Made by a program: the position numbers and the translations under genes
The notes under the pieces: model-generated
Seen by the model: only the letters and a program-made list of their open reading frames with translations
What the model was told of the DNA's origin: nothing
Databases searched by the model: none
Part shown: positions 21,359-37,341 of the stretch, piece after piece
Position numbering within the stretch: the first letter of the stretch is position 1
Layout: every line of letters begins with the position of its first letter
Origin: Patescibacteria group bacterium
GTDB lineage: Bacteria > Patescibacteriota > CPR2 > UBA1875
Direction of reading: 5' to 3'
DNA: 64,000 bases
NCBI GenBank assembly: GCA_041737595.1
Contig: JBGSRK010000009.1
Span: 43,233-107,232, forward strand

Positions 21359-21409
21359 TATTCCTTTGTATTAATATTATATCATATTAATTTTATAAAC
21401 CCCCTATAA

Positions 21410-22180
21410 TTATTTCCTATTTGGCAAAGGAATAAGAGGGCTCGTTTTCTTCTTGTATTCTTGCCAATGTGGCTTATTTTCAAAATGTTTTTCGGTGAGT
21501 GGAATACCAGAAACAAAAATAATAAGATAAGTGATAGTGATTGGGGTTATAATTGCCCAATAATTATTGGTGTTTAAAAAAACAAATATAAAAATACCCC
21601 ACCACATCGTAACTTCACCAAAATAATTTGGATGTCTAGAATATTTCCAAAGACCTCTGTCCATAATTTTGCCTTTATTATCAATCTCCGCAATAAAACC
21701 TTTTAACTGTGTATCGGCGATTGTTTCAAATATGAACCCAAATAGCCAAATAGCTACACCAATAAGAGAAAGTGAATTCCAGTTTTTATCACTTATAATT
21801 AAAAACATTGAGCTCATGCCCAATAAATACATTAGGAACCCCTGAAGTAAAAATACATATATATATGCTTTTAATTTTGGAAATTTTTTCCAATTGGCAC
21901 GCATTTCTAAATAACGGACATCTTCGGAAGAACTCTTGGCATGTCTCTTGTGAATATGATTAGACAGCCTATACCCCCAAATAAAAGTTAAGATCAATAA
22001 AATAATTGAGCCTAAAAAATAGTTTTTAGTTAAAAAAATAGCTGTTAGCACTATAAATGGTTGTGCCAACCCCCAAGCTTCATCGGCAACATCAAGACGC
22101 CCTATTTTTTGTCCATATATATACCACAAACTAGTATATATCAGTACAGCGAATGCAATAATTATAAAATATGAAAACAT
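21410..22180 (-). CDS. Membrane protein of the ICMT/PEMT/steroid-5-alpha-reductase-like (DUF1295) superfamily
   Basis: RHPNYFGEVTMWWG motif near the C-terminus; multiple TM helices. Start is probably MFSYF at 22180. Confidence 0.55.
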   Translation of the reverse strand: MFSYFIIIAFAVLIYTSLWYIYGQKIGRLDVADEAWGLAQPFIVLTAIFLTKNYFLGSIILLILTFIWGYRLSNHIHKRHAKSSSEDVRYLEMRANWKKFPKLKAYIYVFLLQGFLMYLLGMSSMFLIISDKNWNSLSLIGVAIWLFGFIFETIADTQLKGFIAEIDNKGKIMDRGLWKYSRHPNYFGEVTMWWGIFIFVFLNTNNYWAIITPITITYLIIFVSGIPLTEKHFENKPHWQEYKKKTSPLIPLPNRK

Positions 22181-22184
22181 ATTA

Positions 22185-22586
22185 TTAGAATAACTTTTTA
22201 CTAATAAAGTAAGAAATTGTTGCCACAACCCCTGTAAGTACACTACCCCAAACCATATCAACAAGGGTAATTGAGAGTGGCCAATTTTTCATGACTGCAT
22301 AGTTTGTCAGATCGTAGGTTGCATAAGCAAAAAAACCGAATAGCGCACCATAAAGAAGAACATGTTGCCAACCTTTATCTATGTTTGGTAAAACTGCAAA
22401 TATTAAAATCCCAACTATATAAATAAGATAAAAAATTATTGCAGCTAACCAGTTTGGTTGAGGGCTAAGACCTGGTATTGTTTTGAAATAGAAATCCTTT
22501 GCAATAACTCCTATCCAGAGCATGTCGATAGCAAAAAATATTGGAACCGTAGCTATATATAGCATTACTTCTTTGATATTTACCAC
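22185..22586 (-). CDS. Small 4-TM membrane protein (DUF2177-like), hypothetical
   Basis: Hydrophobic profile only. It lies 4 nt upstream of the next gene. Confidence 0.45.
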   Translation of the reverse strand: MVNIKEVMLYIATVPIFFAIDMLWIGVIAKDFYFKTIPGLSPQPNWLAAIIFYLIYIVGILIFAVLPNIDKGWQHVLLYGALFGFFAYATYDLTNYAVMKNWPLSITLVDMVWGSVLTGVVATISYFISKKLF

Positions 22587-22716
22587 CTTTCTTTACTATA
22601 TTTTAACATATTATATATATTAGATTGGAGAATTTGTGTCATTTATATAAATAGACCGATAAAATCGGCCTATTTCGTATGCGTTCCATTTGGCGAAGCG
22701 AGTAACGAAGATAATA

Positions 22717-23733
22717 TTAAGAATAATCCTTAATCAAAGATTTGATAATTTTAAATCTTTTTGTGTAATCTAGATAATATTGTTTGAGTTCTTTTGTGAG
22801 TTTACCATCTTTCTCATCATGATAAGCTTCAAAATATCTACCTTGATATCTTTTCTCAAGGGCATAATAAAACGACATTATTTTTTCTTCTTTATTAAGT
22901 TTTTTTATGGATTCATACCCATCAAAAAAAATTTCAATTTTTCTTTTACATGATTTTTTATTACCCCTTTTTAAGAGCACATGGAAAAACATCCCGATAT
23001 CTTCTGAAACTACGCTATGTCTAGTATCATCAAAATCAAAAATACCCGAAAGTTTATTGTGCAAAAATCTTAGATTCCCTTCATGCATATCAGAATGAAT
23101 TTGAAGTGTTGGTAATTTCTTAATAACTTTAGGATTAATAAATTTTTGGTAATAATTAATAATTGGTAGATATGAATGACTAATATCCTCATCTTTCACC
23201 TCTTGTTTTTTCCTCGCCGCATCAACCCACCAATTGTAATAGTTTAGGGCTCCATCTTTTTCTCGAATATATTTTGGTTTATAATTCAAGGTTAATTTAT
23301 GAATTTTAGCCATCCATTTTGCTAAATCTTTAATCTTTTCCTTATTAAACTTTTTGATTTTATCACCATATATATAATCAAAAAGGACAACAAAAAGATC
23401 ATATTGACCCAATCTAATCTTAGTAAATAACTTACCATTAGTAGTTTTATTAATATGAGCAACTAGTATTTTATGTTCAGACAAAAAGTTTAGAAAATTC
23501 AATTCATATAAAAGATGTTTTTTATCCCTAAAAACTCGACCATATTGTTTATCATTATAAATCCTAACTACATATTTCTTTTTGCTAATTTTAACTATTA
23601 TATTAATATTTTCATAACCTTGTTCTACTGGCGTAAAATTAAATTGAAAATCGCCAGAATAATAATTTTTTAAAATTTCATGTAATTTTTCTTTCGTTAC
23701 TAAATGGCCGTATTTATCTTTGAATCTTTCCAT
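22717..23733 (-). CDS. Phosphotransferase (APH/choline-kinase-like kinase fold)
   Basis: HSDMHEGNL (Brenner HxDxxxxN) and IFDFDD (DFG-like). Confidence 0.7.
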   Translation of the reverse strand: MERFKDKYGHLVTKEKLHEILKNYYSGDFQFNFTPVEQGYENINIIVKISKKKYVVRIYNDKQYGRVFRDKKHLLYELNFLNFLSEHKILVAHINKTTNGKLFTKIRLGQYDLFVVLFDYIYGDKIKKFNKEKIKDLAKWMAKIHKLTLNYKPKYIREKDGALNYYNWWVDAARKKQEVKDEDISHSYLPIINYYQKFINPKVIKKLPTLQIHSDMHEGNLRFLHNKLSGIFDFDDTRHSVVSEDIGMFFHVLLKRGNKKSCKRKIEIFFDGYESIKKLNKEEKIMSFYYALEKRYQGRYFEAYHDEKDGKLTKELKQYYLDYTKRFKIIKSLIKDYS

Positions 23734-23835
23734 ATATAAATCTTATCACAAATAGAGCTTAGTAGATTAGCACTTCTGGTAATTAATATATATAGGTTGA
23801 AAATTATTGATTACCTTTAAAACATTTAATTTTGT

Positions 23836-24669
23836 ATGTATATTTTTTTTAGATTTTTCACTAGAGGTATGTCCCATTTCTTCGAATCTATAAAGCTTGC
23901 ATTTTCTTGTAATAAGTCCTATAAACAGTCTATCAAACCATTAATCGAAAAAATTTATAACTGTATGTTTTTTAATCCAAAGAAGAAAAATGAATGGAAG
24001 TTTTGGGATTATAAAATGTCAAAAAAAGTTAGTGAAATTATTAAGGGAGGGGAATTTAAGGAAATAGAAGATCCGGTAGAAAAAAAGTTTTATTTTTGGT
24101 TATTAGAAGAATTGTCTAATGATATTAACTTTAATAAATTAAACACCCTTGAGTTAGGTGCAGGTTCTGGAGCTTTTTCCTATTATTTACAGAAGCGCTT
24201 CAGATGCTCGGTTACACTTTTAGATAATAGTAAAAATGCCATTAAATACGCAAAGTTACTAAACTATAGAGCAAAAATATTAGAAAAAGATGCTCGGCAG
24301 TCATTTGGTATCAGTAAATATAATTTTATTCATACAACTGGGTTACTTGAACACCTTAATGACAAAGATATAAAACAAATAATCAAAAACATTAAGCGAG
24401 CCTTAAAACCTAATGGTATAGCCTTCTTAGCAGTCCCAAATTATTTTAGCCCAGCATTAATAACACTATGGAAAATTCACGGCAAGGGTTCAGAAAGGTA
24501 TATAACAATAAGAGATCTTAAAAAATATATAAAATCTTATGGATTTAACTTGATTGCAGCTCGTCATTCGTATTTTAGTTTTGAAAAGATAACAAGATAT
24601 ATCTGGTTGGAGAAAATAATAGGTAGACTCGGTCTAGGCTTTTTAAATTATATTATTGTACAAAAATGA
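23836..24669 (+). CDS. Class I SAM-dependent methyltransferase
   Basis: LELGAGSGAFSYYL (motif I) ... LLDNS ... LKPNGIAFLAVP. Confidence 0.7.
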   Translation: MYIFFRFFTRGMSHFFESIKLAFSCNKSYKQSIKPLIEKIYNCMFFNPKKKNEWKFWDYKMSKKVSEIIKGGEFKEIEDPVEKKFYFWLLEELSNDINFNKLNTLELGAGSGAFSYYLQKRFRCSVTLLDNSKNAIKYAKLLNYRAKILEKDARQSFGISKYNFIHTTGLLEHLNDKDIKQIIKNIKRALKPNGIAFLAVPNYFSPALITLWKIHGKGSERYITIRDLKKYIKSYGFNLIAARHSYFSFEKITRYIWLEKIIGRLGLGFLNYIIVQK

Positions 24670-24946
24670 AAACCAATAACGAACATTCAAATTATTAAAA
24701 ACTTATATCTTGGTTACCAATTTATAATTTTTAAGGTTGAAAAATAATATAATGAGTTAGTTTATTTGTATTATTTGTAATTTTAGTTTAAAAGGAGAAT
24801 TATTATATGACTAGATAAAAAATAATTTCTGAAATGTTTATTACTAACCAAAAGATTAAAATGGCTATTTAATATATTATAGATTCTTATTGAATTTATT
24901 ACGATTATGGCTTATTATTAATGAAATATTAAAAAAAGGAAAAATC

Positions 24947-25963
24947 ATGTATATATATAATAAAAAATATTTCATTGTTACACTGGTTGTATTGGCTTTA
25001 TTCCTAATTACATGTATCGTATTTAATATTTATATGCCAAAAAAACAGACATCTAAAACAAAAATTAGAATTGGTTGGCAAACTCCTTGGGCTATTCAAG
25101 GACAAATAGCTCAAAGTTTAAAAAATACTGATTATTTATCAAAAAATAATCTAGAACCAGAGTTTACTGGTTTTGATTCTGGTGCTCCTCTTAATGAGGC
25201 TGCGTTAGCAGGTAAAGTAGATGTTATATTTACTGCGGATCAACCAGCCGCTACATTATTATCTAAAAGCAGTGACTGGGTAATTGTTTCGCGATTGATG
25301 TATAATAGGGTTTCTCTGTATGTACCACCAAAATCAAGTATTTTAAGCATATCTGATTTAAAAGGGAAAACAGTTGGTATGCCATTTGGGGCAGCGGCAC
25401 AGAGAATGGCTTATAAAGCAGAACAAGATATGGGGCTAAAACCAGGCATAGATGTGAAAAATGTAAACCTGGGAATCTATGAACAAAGTGATTTGGTAAA
25501 AAATTCTGAAGCAACTAATTGGGGCAACTTTGATGCCTTAGCAGGTTTTGATCCGACCCCAGCTGTATTTGAAGATAAGGGACTTATAAAGATGCTTAAA
25601 ACCGATACTGTTATTTCACTAGTACTTGTAAACAAAAAATATATTTCTGAAAATACTGACTCAGTTCGTAGTTTTCTAAAATCACTTAAGTCTAGTTATC
25701 TATTTTATGCACAAAATCAGGAAAAAGCTAACAAATGGTTTAAGGATGCTTCTAGACTAAATATCTCGGATAATGCACTAAAAATTTCTGCCTCTGTTGA
25801 ACCAAACTTAAAAGCAAAAAAAGAAAAAGATATAATACTTAATTTAAATGATAATGATTATAAAATAATGCAGGAAGCTGCAGACTTTTTATTCAATAAT
25901 GGTTTAATAAAAACTAAGGTTGATATGCGAGCTAATGTGAATTTAGATTATCTTACAAAGTAA
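24947..25963 (+). CDS. ABC transporter substrate-binding protein, NMT1/THI5-like (NitT/TauT family)
   Basis: N-terminal TM anchor, then IRIGWQTPWAIQGQIAQ...FDSGAPLNEAALAGKVDVIFTADQPA. Confidence 0.75.
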   Translation: MYIYNKKYFIVTLVVLALFLITCIVFNIYMPKKQTSKTKIRIGWQTPWAIQGQIAQSLKNTDYLSKNNLEPEFTGFDSGAPLNEAALAGKVDVIFTADQPAATLLSKSSDWVIVSRLMYNRVSLYVPPKSSILSISDLKGKTVGMPFGAAAQRMAYKAEQDMGLKPGIDVKNVNLGIYEQSDLVKNSEATNWGNFDALAGFDPTPAVFEDKGLIKMLKTDTVISLVLVNKKYISENTDSVRSFLKSLKSSYLFYAQNQEKANKWFKDASRLNISDNALKISASVEPNLKAKKEKDIILNLNDNDYKIMQEAADFLFNNGLIKTKVDMRANVNLDYLTK

Positions 25964-27081
25964 TGAAAAATATCCTACTTATTTCTATTGATTCTGTAAG
26001 AGCAGATGTAGCATATAATAGCAATCTACCTACATTAGATAATTTAGCAGCCGATGGTATAAAATACATTAATTGTATTTCCTCCTCTCCTCTTACCCCA
26101 GTTAGTCATGCGACTGTTTTGACTGGTTTACAACCATTTAACCACGGTGTCAGACATCTTTTTAAGGAAAAAATGAATGACAAAAGACCAACATTAGCAG
26201 AAATACTGAAATTAAATGGATATAAAACAAGAGCCATTGTCTCTTGTCCAGGGATGAATAGTTGGTACGGATTTTCTCGTGGTTTTGATATATACGATGA
26301 TGAAATCCCAAAATTAACAGACGGTTCTGATGCTCTACTTACTGTTGATGTTGAAAAAAGAGGGTTAGCAATGAAAAGAGCGAAAGACGTAGTTGATAGG
26401 GCTATTTCACATATAGATGAGTTAGATAACAACTTCTTTCTTTTTGTTCACTTTTTCGATGCGCACTGGCCTTACAACCCTCCTAAAAAATATGGTGGAA
26501 AAAATAAATACGAAGAGGAAGTATTTTATACTGATCATCATTTAGGTAGACTTATTAATCACCTTAAAGAGATTAATAAGTATAAAGATACTACTATTAT
26601 ATTATTCTCTGACCACGGGGAAGATCTTGGCGGATGGTATCCGAACGATAAAGCAGGAGATAAATATGGTAATCCAGACGAAAAAGGTCATGGTACACTA
26701 CTATATGATCAGACCATAATGACTGTTCTTATTATAAAAGACTCACGAATTAAAAAAAATCAGACTGTAATAGACCAAGTCAGGCTTGTTGATATTATGC
26801 CAACAATCTTAGATTTACTAGATATAAAAACTGATAATCAGTTTGATGGATTTAACCTTTTAAAGACAACTGAAGAGGAGGGAAAACAGCTACTAGGCTA
26901 TTCTGAGACTTTTTTCCCTGAAGAAATCAAAAGTGGTATTAGTAGAAAAAAATCATTCCGTTTAAATAATACTTATAAAGTCATTATTGGGTTAGATAAT
27001 GATGCAATTGAGTTTTATAACTTAATTGCTGACCCAAACGAGCAAAACAACATGTTTAAAACAATTGACAAAAATGCATAA
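25963..27081 (+). CDS. Alkaline-phosphatase-superfamily enzyme, nucleotide pyrophosphatase/phosphodiesterase (NPP)-like, cytoplasmic
   Basis: LLISIDSVRADV; LTPVSHATVLTGL (Thr nucleophile, T-x-P-x-H motif); FSDHGE. No signal peptide. Confidence 0.7.
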   Translation: MKNILLISIDSVRADVAYNSNLPTLDNLAADGIKYINCISSSPLTPVSHATVLTGLQPFNHGVRHLFKEKMNDKRPTLAEILKLNGYKTRAIVSCPGMNSWYGFSRGFDIYDDEIPKLTDGSDALLTVDVEKRGLAMKRAKDVVDRAISHIDELDNNFFLFVHFFDAHWPYNPPKKYGGKNKYEEEVFYTDHHLGRLINHLKEINKYKDTTIILFSDHGEDLGGWYPNDKAGDKYGNPDEKGHGTLLYDQTIMTVLIIKDSRIKKNQTVIDQVRLVDIMPTILDLLDIKTDNQFDGFNLLKTTEEEGKQLLGYSETFFPEEIKSGISRKKSFRLNNTYKVIIGLDNDAIEFYNLIADPNEQNNMFKTIDKNA

Positions 27082-27091
27082 GTTTGGTAGA
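27063..27091 (+). promoter_or_regulatory. Consensus sigma70-like promoter TTGACA-N17-TAGAAT for the high-GC hisS cassette
   Basis: TTGACA 27063..27068, a 17-nt spacer, then TAGAAT 27086..27091. It lies inside the 3' end of the NPP gene. Confidence 0.45.
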
Positions 27092-27148
27092 ATATGCCCT
27101 ACGAAGGCTCAGTGGGCTTTCGGGCCCCTTAAAAAGGAGAAGATTTAG

Positions 27149-28450
27149 ATGAATAAGAAAAGAGCAGGACTCCTTAGTGGGTTCTTGGATTTCCTTCCCG
27201 AGGTAGAGCTCATGAGAGAGGCCATGATCGATAAGGTTACTGGCGTCTTCAAGCTCTATGGGTATGGTCCCCAAGATACTCCCTGTCTGGAGTACGCCGA
27301 GACCTTGTTAGACAAGTATGGTGAGAACCAGAAGCTTGTCTACGAGTTCGAGGACAATGGTGGGCGAAAGGTTGCCCTGAGGTATGACCTGACCGTTCCG
27401 CTTTCACGTGTGGTGCCGTCCTATCCAAGTAAGATCAAGCTTCCATTCAAGCGCTACCAAGTAGGCAAGGTGTGGCGAGCAGATCGTCCTGGTAAAGGAC
27501 GTTTTCGCGAATTCATACAAGTAGATGCTGACACAATCGGCACGTCCTCGCCGCAGCTCGATTCTGAGCTTGTCATGGTTACACTTGATGTCATCGCCGC
27601 ACTGAAGCTCACAGCATATGTGAGGATCAACGATAAACGGATCCTCGACGCTCTGAGCAAAACATGTGGTCTGACCGAAGAGCAGAAGATACTTGTACTG
27701 CGCTCAATTGACAAGCTGGATAAGATCGGTCAAGACGCTGTAGTTGTCGAGATTAGCAAGATTGGCCTCGATGCTGAGAAGCTAGATATCGTACAGCAGT
27801 ATCTCGGCATCAACGGGATACCCCGTGAAGTCATCACCAGTCTTCGCGACTTGCTTCAGCCGTGTACTGAGCTTGACGAGGGATGCAAAGTTCTCGAGAC
27901 AGTATTCGAAACCGTCTTTGCGCTTGGCTACGATGCCAAGTCTCTGCGTATCGATCCATGTATCGCCCGAGGCCTCGACTACTACACGGGAGTCATCTTC
28001 GAGACCATGCTGGTTGATAACCCAGAATTCGGGAGTATCTGTTCCGGCGGACGTTACGACTCGATCGTCAAGGATGGCAATGGCAGAGTTTTGCCGGCGG
28101 CCGGTGTTTCAATCGGCCTAGATAGACTCTTTGCGGCCATGCTTGATCGGGATCAGCTTCCCAATGCGGAAGCAGTTGCGAGAGTCCTCATTACAAACAT
28201 GGGAGACTCTACTGCTCGGAAAGCAACAGAGATCGCCTCGTCACTCAGACGCGCCGGTATCTCTGTGCTTTACTACCCAGAAAAGGCCAAGCTCGCAAAA
28301 CAGCTTGGCTACGCATCCGACCTTAAGATCCCTTGGGCCCTTATCGTAGGTCCCGAAGAGATCGAAGCCGGTATGTACACCATCCGTTCTATGGTAGACC
28401 GTCAGCAGACAACCGTACCCCAGGATCAAATCATCAAATCACTCCGCTAG
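27149..28450 (+). CDS. hisS: Histidyl-tRNA synthetase, high-GC island copy
   Basis: GRFREFIQVDADTIG (motif 2/HisA), CSGGRYDSIV...AAGVSIGLDRL (motif 3), and a C-terminal anticodon-binding domain. GC ~56%. AAGGAG SD. Confidence 0.9.
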   Translation: MNKKRAGLLSGFLDFLPEVELMREAMIDKVTGVFKLYGYGPQDTPCLEYAETLLDKYGENQKLVYEFEDNGGRKVALRYDLTVPLSRVVPSYPSKIKLPFKRYQVGKVWRADRPGKGRFREFIQVDADTIGTSSPQLDSELVMVTLDVIAALKLTAYVRINDKRILDALSKTCGLTEEQKILVLRSIDKLDKIGQDAVVVEISKIGLDAEKLDIVQQYLGINGIPREVITSLRDLLQPCTELDEGCKVLETVFETVFALGYDAKSLRIDPCIARGLDYYTGVIFETMLVDNPEFGSICSGGRYDSIVKDGNGRVLPAAGVSIGLDRLFAAMLDRDQLPNAEAVARVLITNMGDSTARKATEIASSLRRAGISVLYYPEKAKLAKQLGYASDLKIPWALIVGPEEIEAGMYTIRSMVDRQQTTVPQDQIIKSLR

Positions 28451-28493
28451 ATCAGTGGGGCGGCTTCGCCGCCCCACTGATCTCAATCTTTTA
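28450..28493 (+). terminator. Strong terminator: 15-bp perfect hairpin GATCAGTGGGGCGGC-TTCG-GCCGCCCCACTGATC followed by TCAATCTTTT
   Basis: Seen directly. It overlaps the hisS stop codon and ends 8 nt before the permease start. Confidence 0.6.
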
Positions 28494-28500
28494 AACGAAA

Positions 28501-29136
28501 ATGATTATTTTAAATAACATATTAACATTATTTATTACAGATGGACTTGCCAGCCTTAGTCGGGTTTTTGTCGGTTTTTTTATTGCTATTATTCTAGGGG
28601 TAGGGCTAGGTACTATTACTTTTTATATAAAAGGGTATAGAAATATACTAAAATTAATTGCAGAATTTCTTAAGTCAATTCCACCCATAGCATGGATTCC
28701 TATTACTATTATGTTTTTAGGGCTTGGTTCGCAATCTGCGATATTTATAGTCTTTTTAGGTGGTTTCTTCCCTATTTTTCTTAATACAGCTTACGGCGTA
28801 ACTTCAATGCCAAAAAAATATACTGAAATATCAAAAAATTTCGGAGTAAATGGAGTATATTTTTATCATAAAATTCTCTTAGGCTATCTCATGCCATATA
28901 TATTAACAGGGCTAAAAATAGGGATAGGGATTGCCTGGACAAGTGTAATTGCCTCTGAAATGATAGGAGTTCAAAGTGGTCTTGGCTATTATATTCAGAT
29001 AAACAGACTTTTACTTAATACCCAGGAGGTAGTTACTGGCATGGTAATGATAGGCGTAATTGGTTACGGAATGACAAAGTTTGTTGAGAAAATTGAGAAG
29101 AAGTACTTAGTTTGGCAAGAGGCAAAGAATGCTTAG
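28501..29136 (+). CDS. ABC transporter permease (binding-protein-dependent inner membrane component, SsuC/TauC-like)
   Basis: EAA-like loop region and 6 TM helices. It is adjacent to the ATPase. Confidence 0.8.
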   Translation: MIILNNILTLFITDGLASLSRVFVGFFIAIILGVGLGTITFYIKGYRNILKLIAEFLKSIPPIAWIPITIMFLGLGSQSAIFIVFLGGFFPIFLNTAYGVTSMPKKYTEISKNFGVNGVYFYHKILLGYLMPYILTGLKIGIGIAWTSVIASEMIGVQSGLGYYIQINRLLLNTQEVVTGMVMIGVIGYGMTKFVEKIEKKYLVWQEAKNA

Positions 29137-29815
29137 ATTGGATAATGTTATTTTTAATAGAGGCGGCAAAAGAATACTTGAAAATATCAACATTCATATC
29201 AAAAAATCTGAAGTTGTGAGCATACTTGGACCATCGGGGATAGGGAAAACTACTCTTGCAAAGATTATGTCAGGTTTACTGAATCCTATTTCTGGTTCAG
29301 TATTTTTAGAGGGGAATATTCTGAAAACCCCTGTACCAACACTAGTATTATCTCACCAAGAATCAGATTTGTTTGATTGGTTGACGGTTGAGGAAAATGT
29401 AGGGTTAGTAGGTGGCAAGAAAAACGCAGAAAAATGGCTTAATATATTTGGTCTGGTTGAATACCGTAATAACTATCCAAAAACCCTCTCAGGTGGTATG
29501 AAAAAAAAAGTTTCACTAGCTAGAGCCGCAAGTGTAAATCCTTCTGTAATAATTTTAGACGAGCCGTTCTCTTCACTGGATGAAAAACAAAAAATAAAGT
29601 ATTATAAAGAATTTAAAAATTTAGCAAATCAAGAAGGAGTTGCAATTATTGTTGTGACTCACGACATAAACGAAGCATATAATTTTTCAAACAGAATTAT
29701 TTTTCTAGGTGGCAACCCTGCGACTATAATAGATGAAAAAATTCCGACCGGGGAAGAAAGTTCAAGTGAAAAAAGAGATTTAGTACTAAAAAATCTTGAG
29801 TCGATAGGAAAATGA
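29129..29815 (+). CDS. ABC transporter ATP-binding protein (SsuB/TauB-like)
   Basis: GPSGIGKTT; LSGGMKKKVSLARA; ILDEPFSSLD; THD H-loop. Confidence 0.85.
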   Translation: MLRLDNVIFNRGGKRILENINIHIKKSEVVSILGPSGIGKTTLAKIMSGLLNPISGSVFLEGNILKTPVPTLVLSHQESDLFDWLTVEENVGLVGGKKNAEKWLNIFGLVEYRNNYPKTLSGGMKKKVSLARAASVNPSVIILDEPFSSLDEKQKIKYYKEFKNLANQEGVAIIVVTHDINEAYNFSNRIIFLGGNPATIIDEKIPTGEESSSEKRDLVLKNLESIGK

Positions 29816-29818
29816 AAG

Positions 29819-31159
29819 ATGAAATATTTAAAAACCGTACTCCCGATGGAAATAAATGAAATCCCAAAGGCAGCTTCGCTTTTAATATCAAGAGCAAGAG
29901 ATTTTGAAGTCTTACTATTTTCTGAGGCAGGGAGCTGGCCTATTAAATATATTTGGGAAAAGATGGCTGCAAAAGATAATAATTATAATAAAGTATTTTT
30001 TTCATCAAAAATTACTTCATTTTCAAAAAGTCCACTAGCTAATCAATTGTGTGGACTGCTAACAATTACTGAAAGAAAATCAAAGCTTTCTCAAAAGAAA
30101 AAAAATAAGATTGCTACACTTTTAAATTCATTTAATGATGAATTTAAAGGTAAAATAACAAATCAGTTACTTAATCAAAATGTAGAAAAAATTATACATT
30201 ATATTTCTTCAATGGGGCTTATAATCCCTAGTGAAGAAGGGTTGATAAAACAAAATAAATGTTTTGATAATAATATATCCACACTTAGTAAAAATTTTAT
30301 TGATTTTAAAAAAAAATCAGTATCATACATTCTTTCTGATCTCCCAAATATTAAACATGAAGTTAGGCCTATACTGCAGATAATTTTATCAGATACTAAA
30401 TTTGGTAAAGCAATAAAGTCACGAAAAGTTTATGTATTTGATGAGATAATAAGTCGTGGGAGGACTATCAATTCTATAGAAGTGATTATAAATTCATTTT
30501 CATCCACAACGGATTGGGTTATGGGAGTTGTCTATTGCCCAAAGTTTTATGTTGGAAGTAAAATTGATTTTGTTTATAGCGATAAAAAGGCATTACCTAC
30601 GTCAAATCGACCAGATATGATTGGAGAAGTGACTTATGAGACTGTATTTGCTTTTGAAACTAAATCACTTACGAATATTTTGCCTAATACAAGAGTAAAA
30701 AATGAAGACGATATAAGTATTTATAACAGTGAAATTGCAAAGTTTAATAGTCGATATTTCCCAAAGCTTAAAATGTTAAATAAGACATCTTTTCGAGCTC
30801 TTTTAAACTTATACTTTATGGCTGACGATAAGGATATATTTGAAAAGTGCCTTCATCTTAATTTAGTTGAATCAGTAAGCCTTTTAGAAGAAATCGCTTT
30901 TTATATAACAATGCCATTTCCACTTTCAGATATTATAAAACGAAATAAGTTTAAAAAAGAATCACGGCAAGTATTAAAAAAATTAGAATGCTCAATAACT
31001 AATTCTGATTTTTCTGATAACCTTAACAAGCTAAAAATAAAGTACTATGCTATTAGAAGTATAATTATTAAGAGTGAAATAGCTTCCTGGATAAAAACAA
31101 ATACTAAAGTAATAAGGGAGTTAGACTTAGTACTGGAGGAGGTTTTTAATGGAAAATAG
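29819..31159 (+). CDS. Hypothetical 446-aa protein with a central PRPP-binding (type I PRTase)-like motif
   Basis: KVYVFDEIISRGRTINS resembles hhhhD(D/E)hh(T/S)(T/S)GxT. The N- and C-terminal parts are unrecognised. It sits inside the ABC/NPP cluster. Confidence 0.35.
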   Translation: MKYLKTVLPMEINEIPKAASLLISRARDFEVLLFSEAGSWPIKYIWEKMAAKDNNYNKVFFSSKITSFSKSPLANQLCGLLTITERKSKLSQKKKNKIATLLNSFNDEFKGKITNQLLNQNVEKIIHYISSMGLIIPSEEGLIKQNKCFDNNISTLSKNFIDFKKKSVSYILSDLPNIKHEVRPILQIILSDTKFGKAIKSRKVYVFDEIISRGRTINSIEVIINSFSSTTDWVMGVVYCPKFYVGSKIDFVYSDKKALPTSNRPDMIGEVTYETVFAFETKSLTNILPNTRVKNEDDISIYNSEIAKFNSRYFPKLKMLNKTSFRALLNLYFMADDKDIFEKCLHLNLVESVSLLEEIAFYITMPFPLSDIIKRNKFKKESRQVLKKLECSITNSDFSDNLNKLKIKYYAIRSIIIKSEIASWIKTNTKVIRELDLVLEEVFNGK

Positions 31160-32546
31160 CTATAAACATATTATTCTTATTTCTATTGATACTTTACGAG
31201 CAGACTGTATTACTGCAGTCGAAACTAGTGATTTTATAAAAAAATATGGTCCAAAAAATTTTTCTACAAAATCACTAAATAATATTGTGAAAAAAGGTAC
31301 TTTTTTCACAAACTGTATCTCGGCAGCACCATATACAACAGCTTCACATGCAGCCTATTTTACTGGTTGTTGGCCTAAAAATAACGGAGTTTATGAATTC
31401 TTTAACCAAAAATTAAAGAAACCTACTATATTTGAATTTGCAAAAAATAACCAATATAGAACTATATTTCAAACTGACTTTCCTATTATTCTAGGTGAAA
31501 CACTTGGGTTTACTAAGGATGTTGATGATTATTTTATTGAGGATGAAATATCAGCTTTTGACAAATTAAAAAATTCAACAAAAAAAACTGTTTCTTTTTT
31601 CCATTTTGGTGGTGTTCATTATCCATATGGGTTTCATAAACTAAAGTTTGCTGGAAAGGATTATATCCATAAAGTTGAAAGTCTAGAAAAAGAATTATCC
31701 GTTAGTAGTAAAGACAAATTAGACGATATATTAGTAGAAAGCTATTATAATAACAAAGATAGAGAGCTACTTTCCAGATATAAAAGGATAGTCGACAAAC
31801 TTTACAGAGAAAAAAAATATAATCGACTGAAGAATCTATATATTGAGGGAATAGATTATTTTATGGAAAATCGGTTCAATAGCTTTATAAAAAAAATAGT
31901 TGATTTTACCGACAGCACTGGTAGTTTACTAGTTATCTTTGCTGACCATGGGGAAGAATGGGATGATTTATCGCGCGGACATGCAAATTCCATCTCTGAC
32001 ACTGTTCTTCGAGTCCCTCTTATATTCTATGGGAAGGGTATCCCAAAAGGCGTAATAAATGATAGTTTAGTTAGAACAATCGATCTTCTCCCTACTATTT
32101 CGAATTTATTTAACATAGAAACCCCTCAATTAGATGGCGTAGCCATGAAATTTACAAAAGAAAAGAAAAATACAAACAATATGGCAATTTCTCAGGTTTG
32201 GAGATTAGGAGATAAGGATAAAATAGCAAAACACCAACAAATGATGATTAACAAAGAAAAGGTGGCGCCCCTACAGACTCTCTTAGAAAAAGAATCAATA
32301 TATTTCAAAAATGTAGCATTTAAAAGAATATACAACAAAGAAGGAACAACTATTTCTGAAAAAACATATTATAATAATGGAAAACAACTTATAAATTCAG
32401 TTGATACACAAAATGAAGAGTTAATAATAATGAAAAATCTACTTGAGAAATATAATTCAAAAGGATTTCGAAAAGTTGAGGCGGCAATTAGTTTACCTAA
32501 AAGACTTATTAAAGAGCTTCGCATGCAGGGCTATAAAATAAAATAA
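31149..32546 (+). CDS. Second NPP-like alkaline-phosphatase-superfamily paralogue, cytoplasmic
   Basis: ILISIDTLRADC; YTTASHAAYFTGCWP; FADHGEEWDD. Confidence 0.7.
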   Translation: MENSYKHIILISIDTLRADCITAVETSDFIKKYGPKNFSTKSLNNIVKKGTFFTNCISAAPYTTASHAAYFTGCWPKNNGVYEFFNQKLKKPTIFEFAKNNQYRTIFQTDFPIILGETLGFTKDVDDYFIEDEISAFDKLKNSTKKTVSFFHFGGVHYPYGFHKLKFAGKDYIHKVESLEKELSVSSKDKLDDILVESYYNNKDRELLSRYKRIVDKLYREKKYNRLKNLYIEGIDYFMENRFNSFIKKIVDFTDSTGSLLVIFADHGEEWDDLSRGHANSISDTVLRVPLIFYGKGIPKGVINDSLVRTIDLLPTISNLFNIETPQLDGVAMKFTKEKKNTNNMAISQVWRLGDKDKIAKHQQMMINKEKVAPLQTLLEKESIYFKNVAFKRIYNKEGTTISEKTYYNNGKQLINSVDTQNEELIIMKNLLEKYNSKGFRKVEAAISLPKRLIKELRMQGYKIK

Positions 32547-32557
32547 AGGAGAATATT

Positions 32558-33844
32558 TTGCCTAAATATAAAACAATTAAACCTCCCAGAGGAATGCATG
32601 ATCAATTTGAAGAAGATTTATTAAAAATTGAATCAGTTATTTCTATAGCATCTGAGATTGCTAGATCATACGGATTTAAAAGAATAGAAACCCCCACTAT
32701 TGAGTCAATCGAAGTTTTCACAAATACTGGAGATAAGACGATTGATAAATGTTTTACATTTATGGATAAATCAAACCGCGAGATGATATTGAGACCAGAT
32801 ATAAATGCTCCAATCAGCCGCGCTATAGTAAATCATAGCTCATCTCAACCACTACCTCAAAAAATATTTTTCCATGGCAGCGTTTTCAGATATAGAAAAT
32901 CATACCGACGTGAGTTTATTATGTTTGGGGTAGAGACATATGGGATTGCTGAGCCTATTGCAGACGCCGAAATACTTCGAGTAGTGGTTGATTTGATTAA
33001 AAGACTGGGTTTTAAAAAATATACGATTGAATATAGTAATCTTTCAATATTTAGTAGGTTGATTAAATTTTTATCAAAGACAGACAAAGTTAATGTTAAT
33101 GTAGAAGAGCTAATATATAAGCTTAGATTTCATAATAAAAAAGAGCAAAAAAGTATTTTAAATAAAATAGGTTTCCAAAAAAAATCAGAAGAGCTAATCA
33201 TGGATTTTCTATCTTGCCCAGAGGTGAATAAAAACAGCTTTAATTTACTTAAAAAGGTAGCGGCTATGGATAAGTCTATAGAAATTGAAGCTCTGTCTGT
33301 TCTGAATTTCCGAGATGAACTCTTAAAACAACAGTTATCAAATTGTATTTTTAAAATTTCAAATCTACATGGTGAATCATTTTACTCTGGTCTTACATAT
33401 CGTTTATATTTATCAACAGAAATGGGAGATGGGGGAAGATATGACAATTTTACTCTTTTACTAGGGGGTTTATATATTCCAGCTACTGGGTTAGGTTTTG
33501 GTATTAGTAGATTAATTAGACTAGCAGAAGCAGAAAGTATATTAATCCCAATAAAAACAAACATAAAATATTTAGTTCGAATAGTAAGAGGCTCTGAAGA
33601 AACTGTACGACCTTATCTGAGATTACTTAGGAAACAAAATATTATTGTCAACGAAATCCCTGAAGACTATAAAGATGATCGGTTGATGCCATTTGCAATC
33701 AAAGGTGGTTATCACCGTATCTTTGTTATAAAAAGTTTTAACAAAATAAGTGGACTTTATGAAGTTTGGTCAATAAATATAGTTGATGGAACTAATAAAA
33801 AATTTTCTACATATGGTCTAAAAGATATATTTAATTGCTCATAA
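32558..33844 (+). CDS. Second histidyl-tRNA synthetase homologue (low-GC, native-composition copy)
   Basis: Class II motifs: ILRPDINAPISRA (motif 1 region), FRYRKSYRREFIMFGVETYG (motif 2), GDGGRYDNF...ATGLGFGISRLI (motif 3), and a C-terminal anticodon-binding-like domain. It is 12 nt downstream of NPP-2. Confidence 0.75.
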   Translation: MPKYKTIKPPRGMHDQFEEDLLKIESVISIASEIARSYGFKRIETPTIESIEVFTNTGDKTIDKCFTFMDKSNREMILRPDINAPISRAIVNHSSSQPLPQKIFFHGSVFRYRKSYRREFIMFGVETYGIAEPIADAEILRVVVDLIKRLGFKKYTIEYSNLSIFSRLIKFLSKTDKVNVNVEELIYKLRFHNKKEQKSILNKIGFQKKSEELIMDFLSCPEVNKNSFNLLKKVAAMDKSIEIEALSVLNFRDELLKQQLSNCIFKISNLHGESFYSGLTYRLYLSTEMGDGGRYDNFTLLLGGLYIPATGLGFGISRLIRLAEAESILIPIKTNIKYLVRIVRGSEETVRPYLRLLRKQNIIVNEIPEDYKDDRLMPFAIKGGYHRIFVIKSFNKISGLYEVWSINIVDGTNKKFSTYGLKDIFNCS

Positions 33845-34023
33845 TATTAAAATGTGAAGACAAACCAGGTAATATTATATTTAGATCTTTTCCCCAAATT
33901 ACAAACTTAGGCGATGCGAGTAACGCAGTGACTATCCAGAAAGATATAGAAATGAGATAAATAAAACATTATAAAAAGGGATAGTCTTTATGTTTCTTAT
34001 ATTTTTTAAGTATTAAAGGAAAG

Positions 34024-34052
34024 AAGCCACACCCCGCTGGGGTATGGCTTCA
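34024..34052 (-). terminator. Hairpin/terminator downstream of purB (GAAGCCACACCCCG-C-TGGGGTATGGCTTC)
   Basis: 11/12-bp stem at the left edge of the high-GC island, with a T-rich tail on the minus strand. Confidence 0.4.
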
Positions 34053-34074
34053 ATTCCGTTGTGTCTTATTCGAT

Positions 34075-35481
34075 CTAGATGGTCAGTGAGCCAAGAATTT
34101 CGGTCCACTGGCCGACAATGCGCTCGGTCGACTCAATCGAGAGACCAATATAGTTATGCGCCGGATCCTTGATAGTCGCAAGTTCAGAAGCGTTGAAAGT
34201 GTTGATATAGGTACGAAGCTTCTGACTTTGAAGTGCGAGGTCCTGGACCGAGACCCCTGTCTCTTTCGACTCGAGAGTCAAAAGACGAACAGCTTCATGC
34301 GCATCCGGATGACCGTGTTTGGCCAAAAGAATGTAGAGCTGCTCACCACATGAACCCTTTCTCATCTCGAGGTTGCGTTCCATGTTGCCAGTGTGAACCT
34401 GAAGCTTCTTCATCGTTTTTGTGATTTTGGTCACGACGATGTAGAGATAGCCCAGAATCTCACCATAAGTACGGCCGGATGCTGAGTTAGTTAGGTCACG
34501 TTGGTGCTCACAGATCTGATCAAGCTGGACCGTAACCCAGCGACCAACCAGAACCTTGTAGAGTGACTCCGCGTTTTCGAAGTTGATCGGGTTCTGCTTG
34601 TCGGGCATCGTTGATGACCCGACCTGACCAGCTTCGAAAAATTCACCGACTTCGGCAATTTCTGTACGCTGCAGGTTCCGCATATCGCGTGAGAGTCCGG
34701 CAAGGAGTCCGGCGGTCTGTACGACCTCAAACAGTAGGTACTGAAGCGGTTCAGGTGGTGCGATCTGAGTTGAGATCGGCGCCGGGTTGACACCAAGTCG
34801 GCCAAGCACAAGACGCTCGAACTCACGAGGATCATCCACTAGAAGCGAGCTGGCATTGTACGCTCCAACTGCTCCAGAGAACTTCCCAACCAGACCGTTT
34901 TTGGCCTGGCAGAGTTTAAGAATCTTCTGACCAAGGGCGTCGACGTACTTTGAGATGGCATTGCCAAAGGTGATCGGAACGGCGTGTTGGCCGTGGGTTC
35001 GACCTACCTGAAGCTGAGCCTTCTCCCGGAGAGCAAGATCGATTAGGACCTTCTCGAGCTCGATCAGAGCCGGAAGAAGGACCTGTTCAGTCACTGCCTT
35101 GTAGCGCGCCACGTTGGCAGTATCGATAATGTCGTACGAAGTGGCAGCAAGGTGGACGAATGGACGGGCTTCTGGACTTACTCGAGCCTGAATGCAGTTG
35201 ACGACCGCTCGGATGTCATGCCGTGTCAGATCTTCCTCCTTGTACACCTCATCGGTCGTGATCTGCTTGCAAGCCTCAGTGACCTCATCAAGGACATCAG
35301 ACGAACAAAGGCCAAGCTCTGCAAGAGTGGCAACAAGCGCACACTCTGCCTCGAGCTTGTAATCCGTGAAAGCATTCTCGGACAGGAACGGTACGAGCGG
35401 AATCACATCCTTCGCGTAACGAGTATCGATAGGAGCAATCCCATCCCAACGGTCATAAGTGACTTTTTCAGTAGGCTCCAT
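34075..35481 (-). CDS. purB: Adenylosuccinate lyase; high-GC island gene
   Basis: The fumarate-lyase family signature region and the PurB N-terminus (YDRWDGIAPIDTRYA) are present. GC ~57%. Start is probably ATG 35481 (MEPTEK) with AGGAG upstream; the longest ORF starts at GTG 35517. Confidence 0.85.
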   Translation of the reverse strand: MEPTEKVTYDRWDGIAPIDTRYAKDVIPLVPFLSENAFTDYKLEAECALVATLAELGLCSSDVLDEVTEACKQITTDEVYKEEDLTRHDIRAVVNCIQARVSPEARPFVHLAATSYDIIDTANVARYKAVTEQVLLPALIELEKVLIDLALREKAQLQVGRTHGQHAVPITFGNAISKYVDALGQKILKLCQAKNGLVGKFSGAVGAYNASSLLVDDPREFERLVLGRLGVNPAPISTQIAPPEPLQYLLFEVVQTAGLLAGLSRDMRNLQRTEIAEVGEFFEAGQVGSSTMPDKQNPINFENAESLYKVLVGRWVTVQLDQICEHQRDLTNSASGRTYGEILGYLYIVVTKITKTMKKLQVHTGNMERNLEMRKGSCGEQLYILLAKHGHPDAHEAVRLLTLESKETGVSVQDLALQSQKLRTYINTFNASELATIKDPAHNYIGLSIESTERIVGQWTEILGSLTI

Positions 35482-35752
35482 GGCGATTATCTTCTCCTTT
35501 TTCAAAGGGCTGGACACAACGAGAATGTCGCTATTTTACTACCAAATAAGGGAAAGGTAAACGTGCTTTATATCCTAAATGTTCAAAAAACTTTATTTTT
35601 TTAAATCGATTTTAGTAAAAATAAAAAAATAGATAAAAAACATGAATTATTTACAGTAAACGATTGTTATGTTAATATACCCGCACGTGTAAGAAAGACA
35701 AACGTCAAGATCTACAGTTTCCTTCAATAGAGAGGTAAGGTGAAAAGGCTCT

Positions 35753-36301
35753 ATGGCTGCAAACGTACCGCTTCTTAGTACCAAATGGCCCAACAAAGAG
35801 GCATATGTCGCGATTGTGCTCGGTAGCAAGAATGATTACAGCAAGATCGAAAAGTTGATCGAGATGATGGAGAAGTTCTCTATCCCCTACGTCATCGTCG
35901 TCATCTCGGCACACCGCAACAAGCAAAAACTCGACGAGTTCATCCAAGGATTATCTGCCACAAACGTTCGCTTTGTCGTAGCTGTCGCCGGTATGGCAGC
36001 AGCACTAGGTGGCGCAATTGCCGCGGAGACCTGTCTTCCAGTATTTGGCATCCCACTACCATCACCGAATGACCCCGATGGTATTGGTGCCAAATTCGCA
36101 ACCAATGAGTTGCCTCCAGGCATCGCACAAGTAGCAGTTCTGGCGGACAATGTCTCAGACAACAGCACACGAATCGTGAACTTGATTGCTCGAACTCTTG
36201 CGATCCTTGACCCCAACTATAAGGGGTTGAAAGAGTTCATGGCAAGTGCATCCGTCGAGAAGCCACCAGTCATTCCGTATGTTCCAAAGGAGGCGAGCTA
36301 G
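35753..36301 (+). CDS. purE: AIR carboxylase / N5-CAIR mutase catalytic subunit; high GC
   Basis: YVAIVLGSKNDYSKIEK...VISAHRN...VAVAGMAAALGGAIAAETCLPVFGIP. Confidence 0.85.
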   Translation: MAANVPLLSTKWPNKEAYVAIVLGSKNDYSKIEKLIEMMEKFSIPYVIVVISAHRNKQKLDEFIQGLSATNVRFVVAVAGMAAALGGAIAAETCLPVFGIPLPSPNDPDGIGAKFATNELPPGIAQVAVLADNVSDNSTRIVNLIARTLAILDPNYKGLKEFMASASVEKPPVIPYVPKEAS

Positions 36302-37156
36302 ATGGCTCACAGAAGAGAAATCAACCGTGGCAAGACTAAGACGATCTACGAAGGCACCAAACTCGGAACTGTCCACGTTGTCAGTCGTGACGACATAACC
36401 GCTGGCGATGGCCAGCGTAAAGATCTGATCCCGGGCAAGGGCCATCTTTCGACCGTCACTACCGCGAACATGTTCATGCTTCTTGCCGCACACGGCATCC
36501 CTACCCACTTCATGAGCATGATCAATGGGAATACGTTCAAAGCGAAGCAAGTCGACATGATCCCGCTCGAATGTGTCGCTCGGAGACTCGCTGTCGGTTC
36601 GTTCCTTGATCGTCAGCCCTCGTTCAAATCCGATCCTCCTCACCGCTTCGAGGCGATTGTTACCGAGCTCTTCTACAAGAGCGACGCAGACAACGACCCG
36701 ATCGTCGTTCCTCAGAGCAACGGTGAGCTCTGGATTCACGATGCACACAAGCCGATTACAGACGCAACCCACAAGGGTATGCTTTCACCGGTGGCGTATC
36801 ATGTCCCACCGGAGAGCTACAACGGCACTCAACTCGAACTCATCGAACAACTGCTCAAGATCACCGAACGAGTCTTTGAGATCCTTGAGCAGGCCTGGCG
36901 ACAAATGGCGAACGCTAATCTCGTTGATCTCAAGATCGAATTTGGGGTGACGAGTGATGGCGAGCTCATAGTTGCCGACGTTATCGATGCAGATTCATGG
37001 CGTCTCTGGCCAGACGGCGACCCGAACCAGGCATGGGACAAGGACTACTACCGTCAGCATGCCGATGCTTCTCGCATTGAAGCTACTCTTCACAAGTACA
37101 ATGAAGTAGCCAAGGCGAGTAACGTTGTTGCCACTTACCGAGACATGACATCCTAA
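36302..37156 (+). CDS. purC: SAICAR synthetase, second copy (E. coli/yeast-type), translationally coupled to purE (TAGATG)
   Basis: GKTKTIYEG...SRDDITAGDGQRKDLIPGKG...LVDLKIEFG...DADSWRLWP. Confidence 0.85.
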   Translation: MAHRREINRGKTKTIYEGTKLGTVHVVSRDDITAGDGQRKDLIPGKGHLSTVTTANMFMLLAAHGIPTHFMSMINGNTFKAKQVDMIPLECVARRLAVGSFLDRQPSFKSDPPHRFEAIVTELFYKSDADNDPIVVPQSNGELWIHDAHKPITDATHKGMLSPVAYHVPPESYNGTQLELIEQLLKITERVFEILEQAWRQMANANLVDLKIEFGVTSDGELIVADVIDADSWRLWPDGDPNQAWDKDYYRQHADASRIEATLHKYNEVAKASNVVATYRDMTS

Positions 37157-37187
37157 CCCCCTTAAGGGGAGAAAGAACCTGAAGGTT

Positions 37188-37216
37188 CCCTCTCTCTGAG
37201 AGGGGGCCTTTATTTA
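37188..37216 (+). terminator. Terminator after purE-purC (CCCTCTC-TCT-GAGAGGG followed by CCTTTATTT)
   Basis: Seen directly. It is preceded by a CCCCTTAAGGGG palindrome. Confidence 0.4.
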
Positions 37217-37260
37217 CAAAAAAGTGCTAAGCATATTAGTTGATTTGAGTCATTAATAGA

Positions 37261-37285: not shown

Positions 37286-37341
37286 CAAGGTGTGTTATAT
37301 TTAGCGAATTGGGGGGCAAGAGCTACAATCATAATCACTTA

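Follow-up and report, generated by a model that had tools for sequence, protein, structure and literature searches.

Paralogs of aminoacyl-tRNA synthetases (aaRSs) are known for unexpected chemistry, HisZ, YadB, PoxA, the amino acid:carrier-protein ligases and LysX being examples. For histidyl-tRNA synthetase (HisRS), a canonical class IIa enzyme (TIGR00442; PDB 1wu7, 1qe0 and 1kmm), the only paralog listed in a 2022 review is HisZ, the regulatory subunit of ATP phosphoribosyltransferase (PMC9437257). Duplicated aaRS genes are also a known route of antibiotic resistance, as in the case of IleRS2 and mupirocin (PMC9437257), and Patescibacteria have been reported to gain genes of nucleotide metabolism and biosynthesis by horizontal transfer (PMC12455944). 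We found nothing in the literature that matched a HisRS paralog in the candidate phyla radiation (CPR), a HisRS-like paralog, hisS2 or HisRS resistance duplicates. Here we describe a stretch of 64,000 nucleotides (the window) from a Patescibacteria group bacterium (GenBank assembly GCA_041737595.1, contig JBGSRK010000009.1, positions 43,233 to 107,232), in which a GC-rich hisS gene and a second, AT-rich HisRS-type gene, whose product we call HisS-like, lie in one co-directional run. Neither the HisS-like family nor the gene cluster that carries it was described in that literature.

Two full-length HisRS-family open reading frames (ORFs) were present exactly at 27149-28450 and 32558-33844, as had been predicted from the letters of the window. 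The original prediction read them as a foreign hisS cassette inserted into an operon ending with the native HisRS, and proposed an antibiotic-resistance duplicate, a displacement in progress or a non-canonical role for the low-GC copy; the evidence presented here favours the last of these. We consider it likely that the region, in its anatomy and in its evolution, represents one copy of a conserved and laterally mobile gene cluster of Patescibacteria. What sets the window apart is its HisRS gene, apparently a xenolog that has not yet ameliorated and that lies at a distance from its paralog. In terms of known kinds, HisS-like is an aaRS paralog, and hisS and the purine genes described below would be instances of horizontal replacement.

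The high-GC gene encodes a full member of the canonical HisRS family. Its product scored 360.5 bits against TIGR00442, above the curated equivalog cutoff of 286.75, matched both tRNA-synt_His (143 bits) and HGTP_anticodon (54.3 bits) of Pfam, and carries ARGLDYYTG (the RGLDYY motif with its catalytic Arg) and SGGRYD (the GGRYD motif). On these sequence criteria it qualifies as the working HisRS of the genome. In contrast, the low-GC product fell below the same cutoff (189.7 bits) and also below that of the hisZ model TIGR00443 (161.7 bits, cutoff 271.65), and its Pfam match was to tRNA-synt_His alone (136 bits), with none to HGTP_anticodon. The class II motifs that had been attributed to it are real, and the anticodon-binding domain is plausible from the model described below. 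Its identification as the native HisRS is not supported, since it is an ancient paralog belonging to a distinct conserved family.

The homologs of HisS-like make up a discrete family of ~24 full-length proteins (30-45% identity) that match PF13393 only. All the named members are from CPR bacteria (Parcubacteria, Levybacteria), and their labels read 'HisS family protein' or, wrongly, HisZ; beyond the family, homology scores fall to those of ordinary HisRS at ~25% identity. HisRS and HisS-like shared 21-27% identity in every genome examined (24% within the window), which indicates that the paralogy is ancient. An AlphaFold2 model of HisS-like built from the family alignment (pLDDT 86.4) gave an end-to-end Foldseek match to HisRS 1wu7, with a TM score of 0.79-0.82 over ~434 columns. 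In this model, residues 337-426 form a beta-alpha-beta-alpha-beta-beta-beta-alpha C-terminal domain, and it is plausible that HisS-like possesses an anticodon-binding-type domain despite the missing Pfam match.

Column statistics over 24 sequences of the family showed that P46 and E49 in motif 1, R111 and R118-E119-F120 in motif 2, and G311 in motif 3 are invariant, R318 in motif 3 being found in 23/24. Also invariant are D291-G-G-R-Y295 (with D296 in 23/24), H271-G272 and Y276-S277-G278, and the family is marked by the motif N-L-H-G-x-G-F-Y-S-G, in which H271 occurs in 24/24. The motif-2 loop is 3 residues shorter than in HisRS. In the numbering of Escherichia coli HisRS, H271 takes the position of the catalytic Arg259 (HisA motif) and M122 (20/24) that of Gln127. 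Likewise, R-P-D-I-N in HisS-like presumably corresponds to R-P-E-x-T in HisRS, with Glu83 changed to Asp and Thr85 to Asn. This pattern suggests that the class II ATP/adenylate site has been kept and that the histidine/alpha-phosphate pocket has been remodelled. A check for degeneration had been proposed for the low-GC copy; it carries every family invariant, shows no decay and has native codon usage, which points to selection on a protein that has specialised away from canonical HisRS without falling into decay, and speaks against its being displaced. HisS-like appears to be a Patescibacteria-restricted family of HisRS paralogs, represented in the window by a native gene that, judging from this conservation, is under purifying selection.

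With canonical HisRS, HisS-like has in common the whole fold (TM ~0.8), motifs 1-3 and GGRYD, and its model also ends in a domain that could be of anticodon-binding type; it differs in its score, its 21-27% identity, the shorter motif-2 loop and the His in place of Arg259. HisZ is also a HisRS-derived paralog, and HisS-like displays a weaker but significant profile similarity to the HisZ entries 3od1, 1z7m and 5m8h. Unlike HisZ, however, it keeps the ATP-site arginines and probably the anticodon-binding-type domain, scores under the hisZ cutoff, and is linked to an ATP-binding cassette (ABC) importer and phosphoesterases instead of his genes. No histidine biosynthesis gene, hisG included, was present among the scanned ORFs of at least 100 amino acids in the window, and in one relative, a JGI contig, a long-form hisG lies 4 kb from the cluster.

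Other sequences of HisRS type were met alongside the family. In two loci (L014, 3089-4199, and L031, 1519-2860), HisS-like is split into two overlapping ORFs, either through a frameshift that made it a pseudogene or through an assembly error, and the near-identical L011 has it intact. Loci L032-L035 and L037, from human-gut and other metagenomes, carry another HisRS-like group (~24-25% identity to the query, ~90-107 bits to HisRS) in a conserved context of its own, made up of a ~1030-1084-aa protein, the HisRS-like gene, and ~223-aa and ~431-aa proteins. This group may be another uncharacterised paralog.

We gathered related loci (L-numbers) by exact look-ups, by a GTDB scan (8 loci) and by a metagenome scan (17 further true members). 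The GTDB loci with HisS-like were all from Patescibacteria, namely Saccharibacteria, Paceibacterota, Buchananbacteria, Gracilibacteria and Nomurabacteria. Mapping the nine cluster proteins of the window onto the loci gave a recurrent set that consisted of a substrate-binding protein (SBP) of NMT1/SsuA type, two alkaline-phosphatase-superfamily proteins (AP1 and AP2), a permease, an ATPase and HisS-like, the last being in the same cluster in ~20 non-redundant related loci. NIF3/DUF34, the protein unk446 described below and class I methyltransferases were frequent extras, the methyltransferases lying inside the cluster in L004-L006, L016 and a JGI contig. A reduced variant has the order HisRS, HisS-like, Pol-beta nucleotidyltransferase, SBP, ATPase, permease and Peptidase_S51.

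The original prediction expected relatives to lack hisS and to show a contiguous operon. Instead, a genuine HisRS lies directly upstream of HisS-like in ~16 of the ~20 non-redundant related loci. The gaps between the two genes, measured in 15 non-redundant loci, range from -38 to +62 nt, and the genes are also adjacent in L036, in one JGI contig and in L014, where HisS-like is split. As HisS-like usually has HisRS directly before it, the cluster appears to have possessed both HisRS-type genes ancestrally, without any insertion to bring them together. This linkage resembles that of SLIMP-SerRS2 and LysX (LysRS-MprF), in which a diverged aaRS paralog is tightly linked or fused to a functional partner, the likeness to HisS-like being one of gene linkage alone. 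The arrangement of the window, with AP2 followed by HisS-like and no HisRS between, recurs in L009, L012 and L013, and two of these (L009 and L013) carry the cluster without a linked HisRS. Moreover, the pairing occurs with near-uniform GC in L007, L008, L016, L025 and L028, the very arrangement that the original prediction had named as evidence against itself.

Composition across the loci may indicate how the pair has moved. The GC content at third codon positions (GC3) of HisRS was above that of its cluster neighbours in 14/16 non-redundant loci, with a median excess of +0.13 and the window as the extreme at +0.34. HisS-like exceeded its neighbours in 14/18 loci (median +0.09; window -0.02). 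Loci with GC3-richer HisRS and HisS-like include L010, L011, L014, L015, L024 and L027, in contrast to L007, L008 and L016. The simplest reading is that HisRS and HisS-like have repeatedly been transferred as a module out of lineages of higher GC and have since ameliorated to differing degrees, which fits the existence of AT-rich versions (L007, L012, L028). In L012 and L029, a native AT-rich HisRS (638-1954) is followed by a 63-aa HisS-like remnant (1944-2132), and a complete, GC-richer HisS-like (8345-9667) lies between AP2 and the permease, which looks like the fossil of a paralog replacement. In L004, the cluster (5440-15822, 38-45% GC by one count and 36-49% by another) adjoins dnaG and rpoD (987-4063, 56-57% GC) and has an IS110-family transposase (15955-16905) after it, similar loci being L005, L006 and L020; the whole cluster in L004 looks like a lower-GC island, which suggests that the cluster itself is mobile.

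Within the window, GC averages ~31-33% and GC3 is bimodal, with ~45 genes at 0.14-0.29 and five (hisS, purC, purB, purE-like and purC-like) at 0.55-0.62. The foreign composition ascribed to hisS is thus confirmed (GC 0.515, GC3 0.57), and its codon usage is uncorrelated with that of native genes (r ~0), which correlate with each other at 0.76-0.90, HisS-like included. With purB and the second purC (purC2), hisS correlates at r = 0.60-0.61 (0.60-0.67 among the three genes), a resemblance that suggests the same or a similar donor. Since four more genes in two other patches share this composition, hisS is not the only foreign patch. Three further aaRS genes of the window are native in composition (GC3 0.19-0.23), so the high GC of hisS is not a housekeeping-gene effect; an effect of protein conservation was rejected on the same grounds and because cluster-linked HisRS genes are AT-rich in L007, L012 and L028. 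The products of purB, purE and the second purC scored under their NCBIfam cutoffs. The purM, purQ and purL genes (2905-7768) are low-GC and native, making the purine pathway a mosaic.

Each high-GC patch has a GC-rich hairpin of its own. We considered an integron gene cassette as the form of the single-gene patches and rejected it: the 3' element of hisS is a perfect 16-bp palindrome unique in the window, the patches are dispersed and there is no integrase among the annotated ORFs, the attC structure being assessed by eye only. A search for a common cassette-end motif or direct repeats in the window found the arm of the hisS hairpin to be unique there, and a similarity between 5' untranslated regions (UTRs), 'TCAGTGGGC', was not significant.

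The expression signals of hisS were largely as predicted, although their origin was not. The gene does lie between the NPP-like (sulfatase-family) AP1 gene and the permease gene, in a co-directional run. The TTGACA-N17-TAGAAT promoter (11/12 matches) was the top scorer of 57 promoter-like sites in 14 kb, such sites showing overall no enrichment over shuffles, and the Shine-Dalgarno sequence AAGGAG lies at 27134-27139, 9 nt ahead of the ATG. However, the -35 hexamer is inside the last codons of AP1 (C-terminus KTIDKNA*), the -10 is in the low-GC spacer, and the GC-rich segment does not start until ~27094. The promoter thus belongs to the native or junction DNA, outside any imported cassette. 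We infer that hisS would be transcribed from this junction promoter and probably also by read-through from upstream. The fold of its 5' UTR was not significant (-17.1 kcal/mol, z = -0.99).

The hairpin at the end of hisS is real and perfect, with 16 bp, -33.5 kcal/mol and z = -8.2, but it does not have the tail of a strong terminator, being followed by CAAUCUUUUA, a weak, interrupted U-tract. Plus-strand promoter-like sites were absent between the hairpin and the ATG of the permease, the next ones lying within the permease gene. The five genes downstream are all intact and keep their conserved residues. The poor U-tract and the integrity of these genes suggest a partial attenuation with read-through, so that the hairpin would probably attenuate, not abolish, their transcription.

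As to the origin of hisS, the best database matches of its protein (44-47% identity) include HisRS partners of HisS-like genes. In a neighbour-joining tree, all cluster-linked HisRS group in one clade with the window HisRS as its long basal branch, the other named Patescibacteria HisRS falling outside. The HisRS was closest to L022, L024 and L015 (46-47%), followed by L004, L008, L010 and L011 (45%), and L007, L016 and L002 were among the lowest (38-41%), while the nearest relatives of HisS-like were L015, L007, L021 and L028 (42-44%). This mild discordance is consistent with a swapped partner, and it is plausible that HisRS itself was replaced by a xenolog. We propose that hisS was acquired, and has not ameliorated since, from a donor of ~50% GC, most likely a Patescibacterium with the same cluster, and that it probably came from the same donor as the high-GC purC, purB, purE and purC-like genes or from a similar one.

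Several points weigh against this account. The tree carries no support values and the window HisRS is on a long branch in it. The discordance between the two proteins is small (38-47%). The closest relatives of the cluster proteins reached at most 59% identity, those of HisRS 47%, and neither a donor nor an empty-site genome was found. The GC3 excess could reflect something systematic, such as a gene-specific compositional pressure. The window covers only 64 kb of the genome, and a second canonical hisS could lie elsewhere. Finally, what can be said about the function of HisS-like rests wholly on residue conservation and context.

That context was examined gene by gene. The core of the cluster would be an SBP-dependent NitT/TauT (NMT1/SsuA) ABC importer plus HisS-like, usually with two cytoplasmic alkaline-phosphatase-superfamily enzymes that have a Thr nucleophile. 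The 446-aa protein, NIF3, methyltransferases and the Pol-beta nucleotidyltransferase are its variable members. Dependence on an SBP identifies the transporter as an importer. The SBP gene, whose longest ORF runs from 24890, has a gene call in L001; its product scored 95 bits against TIGR01728 (SsuA_fam), under the cutoff, and has orthologs at 380-405 bits in at least 8 loci. AP1 orthologs in the related loci scored 430-484 bits.

Neither AP1 nor AP2 has the C/S-x-P-x-R formylglycine motif of type I sulfatases (PF00884), both having Thr for Cys/Ser and His for Arg. In AP1, T-P-V-S-H stands opposite S-G-P-S-R of sulfatase 5g2v (HMMER alignment), and in AP2, T-T-A-S-H aligns to 9bes with Thr opposite the formylglycine and His opposite the Arg. 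These substitutions make it more likely that AP1 and AP2 are NPP-type enzymes, hydrolysing or transferring phospho-ester or pyrophosphate groups, than that they are sulfatases, and the sulfatase annotation is probably wrong. By eye, their translations lack an N-terminal membrane segment.

The protein unk446 had no Pfam or NCBIfam family (Pfam gave only noise at E<=1) and no profile match in the PDB at E<=10, and its AlphaFold2 model from 3 sequences was unusable (pLDDT 40.8). The family alignment shows an invariant Y-[VL]-x-D-[ED]-x-x-S-R-G-R motif that resembles a phosphoribosyl pyrophosphate (PRPP)-binding loop. The family is rare: a search of 1.84 billion proteins yielded 14 representatives at E<1e-30. 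Remote relatives occur within long proteins, as domains joined to rSAM-SPASM, PfkB/ARMT1-like phosphatase, HAD or MobA-like NTP transferase, and in a JGI contig its slot is taken by a radical-SAM gene.

Together these assignments point to the uptake of a small molecule and its processing by phospho-ester or nucleotide-type chemistry. Tentatively, and from residue conservation plus context, HisS-like may be an ATP-dependent adenylate-forming enzyme that acts on histidine or on a histidine-like compound delivered by the importer and the phosphoesterases, possibly working with HisRS or tRNA-His. A bolder proposal, which we regard as doubtful, is that it is a new catalytic, Patescibacteria-specific aaRS-type enzyme, translationally coupled to HisRS, that would charge tRNA-His or another acceptor with an imported histidine derivative or make a histidyl-nucleotide conjugate, HisRS and HisS-like forming a laterally exchanged functional module. 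If this is true, no HisRS paralog before HisS-like would have had a catalytic role, as distinct from regulation of the HisZ type.

Other explanations of the pair have to be weighed against these data. HisS-like could be a non-catalytic, HisZ-like regulator that senses histidine or uncharged tRNA-His, as HisZ and the HisRS-like domain of GCN2 do, and that controls a partner such as the transporter, unk446 or HisRS, with which it might form a heterodimer. The tight adjacency and overlap of the two genes suggest a pair of fixed stoichiometry, the PRPP-loop-like motif of unk446 recalls a phosphoribosyltransferase partner and the profile matches in the PDB include HisZ entries; in addition, the change of Arg259 to His cripples adenylation in E. 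coli HisRS. Yet the score of HisS-like lies below the hisZ cutoff, no his gene was seen among the scanned ORFs of the window, and many loci keep HisS-like without unk446. The motif-2 and motif-3 arginines and DGGRY(D) are (near-)invariant, which would probably be unexpected in HisZ, and on balance we think a regulator unlikely. We find it quite unlikely, too, that the cluster is a self-protection or target-linked module, making, importing or processing a histidyl-adenylate-like or histidine-analogue compound, with the linked HisRS as a dedicated insensitive variant and HisS-like making or handling an aminoacyl-nucleotide. The separate clade of the cluster-linked HisRS, the movement of HisRS and HisS-like as a module of its own composition and the co-encoded enzymes of nucleotide or phospho-ester type (NPP-like AP1, AP2, the Pol-beta nucleotidyltransferase and unk446) would agree with it, as would Peptidase_S66 by the cluster in three loci and 7 kb off in the window, and Peptidase_S51 in four loci. 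However, the transporter would import and not export, biosynthetic scaffold enzymes could not be recognised, only a minority of loci have the peptidases and S66 may be a mere peptidoglycan LD-carboxypeptidase, and L009 and L013 carry the cluster without a linked HisRS.

The resistance duplicate proposed originally, that is, a foreign inhibitor-insensitive HisRS beside a sensitive native one, after the manner of IleRS2, fits the foreign composition of hisS, its strong promoter and the known role of aaRS duplicates in resistance (PMC9437257). As in those systems, a laterally acquired aaRS lies in an operon near a second gene of its superfamily. Nevertheless, resistance of this sort depends on a pair of enzymes with identical specificity, and the presumed native one scores under the TIGR00442 cutoff, with His in place of the catalytic Arg and a shorter motif-2 loop. 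Its divergence from hisS (24% identity) is ancient, the pairing is kept in ~16 loci over several CPR classes, some of uniform GC, no inhibitor-biosynthesis genes were recognised and no HisRS resistance duplicate appears in the 2022 review (PMC9437257), all of which makes this explanation very improbable. Hardly credible at all is an assembly artefact, in which the high-GC segments would have been joined in from a GC-richer organism of the same sample. In its favour are the metagenomic origin of the assembly and the sharpness of the composition switches. Against chimerism speaks the product of a second assembler: a Logan contig (SRR28170473) equals window positions 23020-37599 over 14,580 bp with 0 mismatches and spans four GC junctions, with the caveat, to be set against our account, that it and the GenBank assembly may have been built from the same reads. 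Furthermore, the switches are exactly intergenic, the flanking ORFs are intact, a functional-looking promoter sits at the junction, the patches are three and separate, and analogous GC steps occur at the same genes in many independent assemblies.

Table 1. Features of the 64-kb window (positions of the window)
Feature	Position	Strand	Remarks
High-GC purC (SAICAR synthase) cassette	7846-8847	+	NF010568 384 bits; GC3 0.56; flanked by native low-GC purL
Class II D/K/N aaRS	18792-20189		native GC3
SAM-dependent methyltransferase	23836-24669	+	heads the co-directional run; Pfam Methyltransf_23/25/11
Membrane-anchored SBP of NitT/TauT-type ABC importer (NMT1/SsuA-like)	24947-25963	+	Pfam NMT1, OpuAC
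AP1, cytoplasmic, alkaline-phosphatase/sulfatase superfamily	25963-27081	+	Pfam Sulfatase 131 bits, Phosphodiest
Sigma-70-like promoter of hisS	27065-27093	+	TTGACA-17-TAGAAT, extended -10 TG; 11/12
GC-rich 5' UTR of hisS	27094-27148	+	start of the foreign-composition segment
hisS, genuine histidine--tRNA ligase (HisRS), xenolog	27149-28450	+	433 aa; high GC
Candidate intrinsic terminator	28449-28483	+	16-bp perfect GC-rich hairpin; overlaps hisS stop; unique in window
ABC importer permease	28501-29136	+	Pfam BPD_transp_1; orthologs ~190-204 bits
ABC importer ATPase	29129-29815	+	Pfam ABC_tran; orthologs found
unk446	29819-31159	+	rare conserved 446-aa protein; ORF overlaps AP2 by 11 nt
AP2, second sulfatase-superfamily enzyme	31149-32546	+	Pfam Sulfatase 71.8 bits; orthologs 392-508 bits
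HisS-like paralog	32558-33844	+	428 aa; TTG start; full-length HisRS fold; native composition, GC3 0.21
GC-rich hairpins of the purB/purE-like/purC-like patch	34023-34051 and 37188-37206		
High-GC patch (purB, purE-like, purC-like)	34075-37156		GC3 0.55-0.62
purB	34075-35517	-	in the high-GC patch
purE-like	35753-36301	+	in the high-GC patch
purC-like	36302-37156	+	in the high-GC patch
Trp/TyrRS	52596-53600		native GC3
LeuRS	55000-57222		native GC3

Around the cluster, Rfam (22000-38000, E<=1) gave no T-box or riboswitch, its one match being a tmRNA fragment due to chance, and no tRNA gene is within or beside the cluster of the window. A tRNA-His adjoins the cluster only in L011, where a normal tRNA-His(GTG) gene at 5215-5291, with an encoded G-1:C73, comes directly after the ATPase gene; the same locus has a TauE/SafE exporter gene (3636-4379) between permease and ATPase. 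Peptidase_S66 genes (LdcA/MccF family) stand beside the cluster in L011 (6898-7902), L012 (2312-3268) and L013 (3924-4892), the one in the window being at 16792-17832, upstream of the cluster, and Peptidase_S51 follows the transporter in L002, L007, L011 and L028. Lipid aminoacylation by way of LPG_synthase_C was considered and rejected, the gene being seen only in L002 and 5 kb away. Directly upstream of the cluster in the window (20294-24669) lie metK (SAM synthetase), a DUF1295 membrane protein, a divergent APH-family kinase and the methyltransferase, a stretch that hints at a theme of methylation and phosphorylation. Farther away, a RhuM/Fic-domain protein (38597-39583, minus strand) adjoins a tRNA-Asp gene, and 62045-63937 encodes a 630-aa protein with a C-terminal sulfatase-family domain and a ~255-aa N-terminal extension, which is LtaS-like.

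These results add to HisZ a second full-length family of HisRS paralogs, with the ATP site apparently intact and the substrate pocket remodelled, that is confined to the ultra-small, host-dependent Patescibacteria. They show that core translation and purine genes of a streamlined genome can be recent, unameliorated xenologs, and that an inserted hisS of foreign appearance can be a regular part of its cluster, which calls for caution in GC-based island calling and in the inference of resistance genes. In bacteria whose metabolism is still so poorly known, HisS-like offers a tangible candidate, ready for cloning, for a new function, and the conserved module that it forms with HisRS in Patescibacteria is a good experimental lead.

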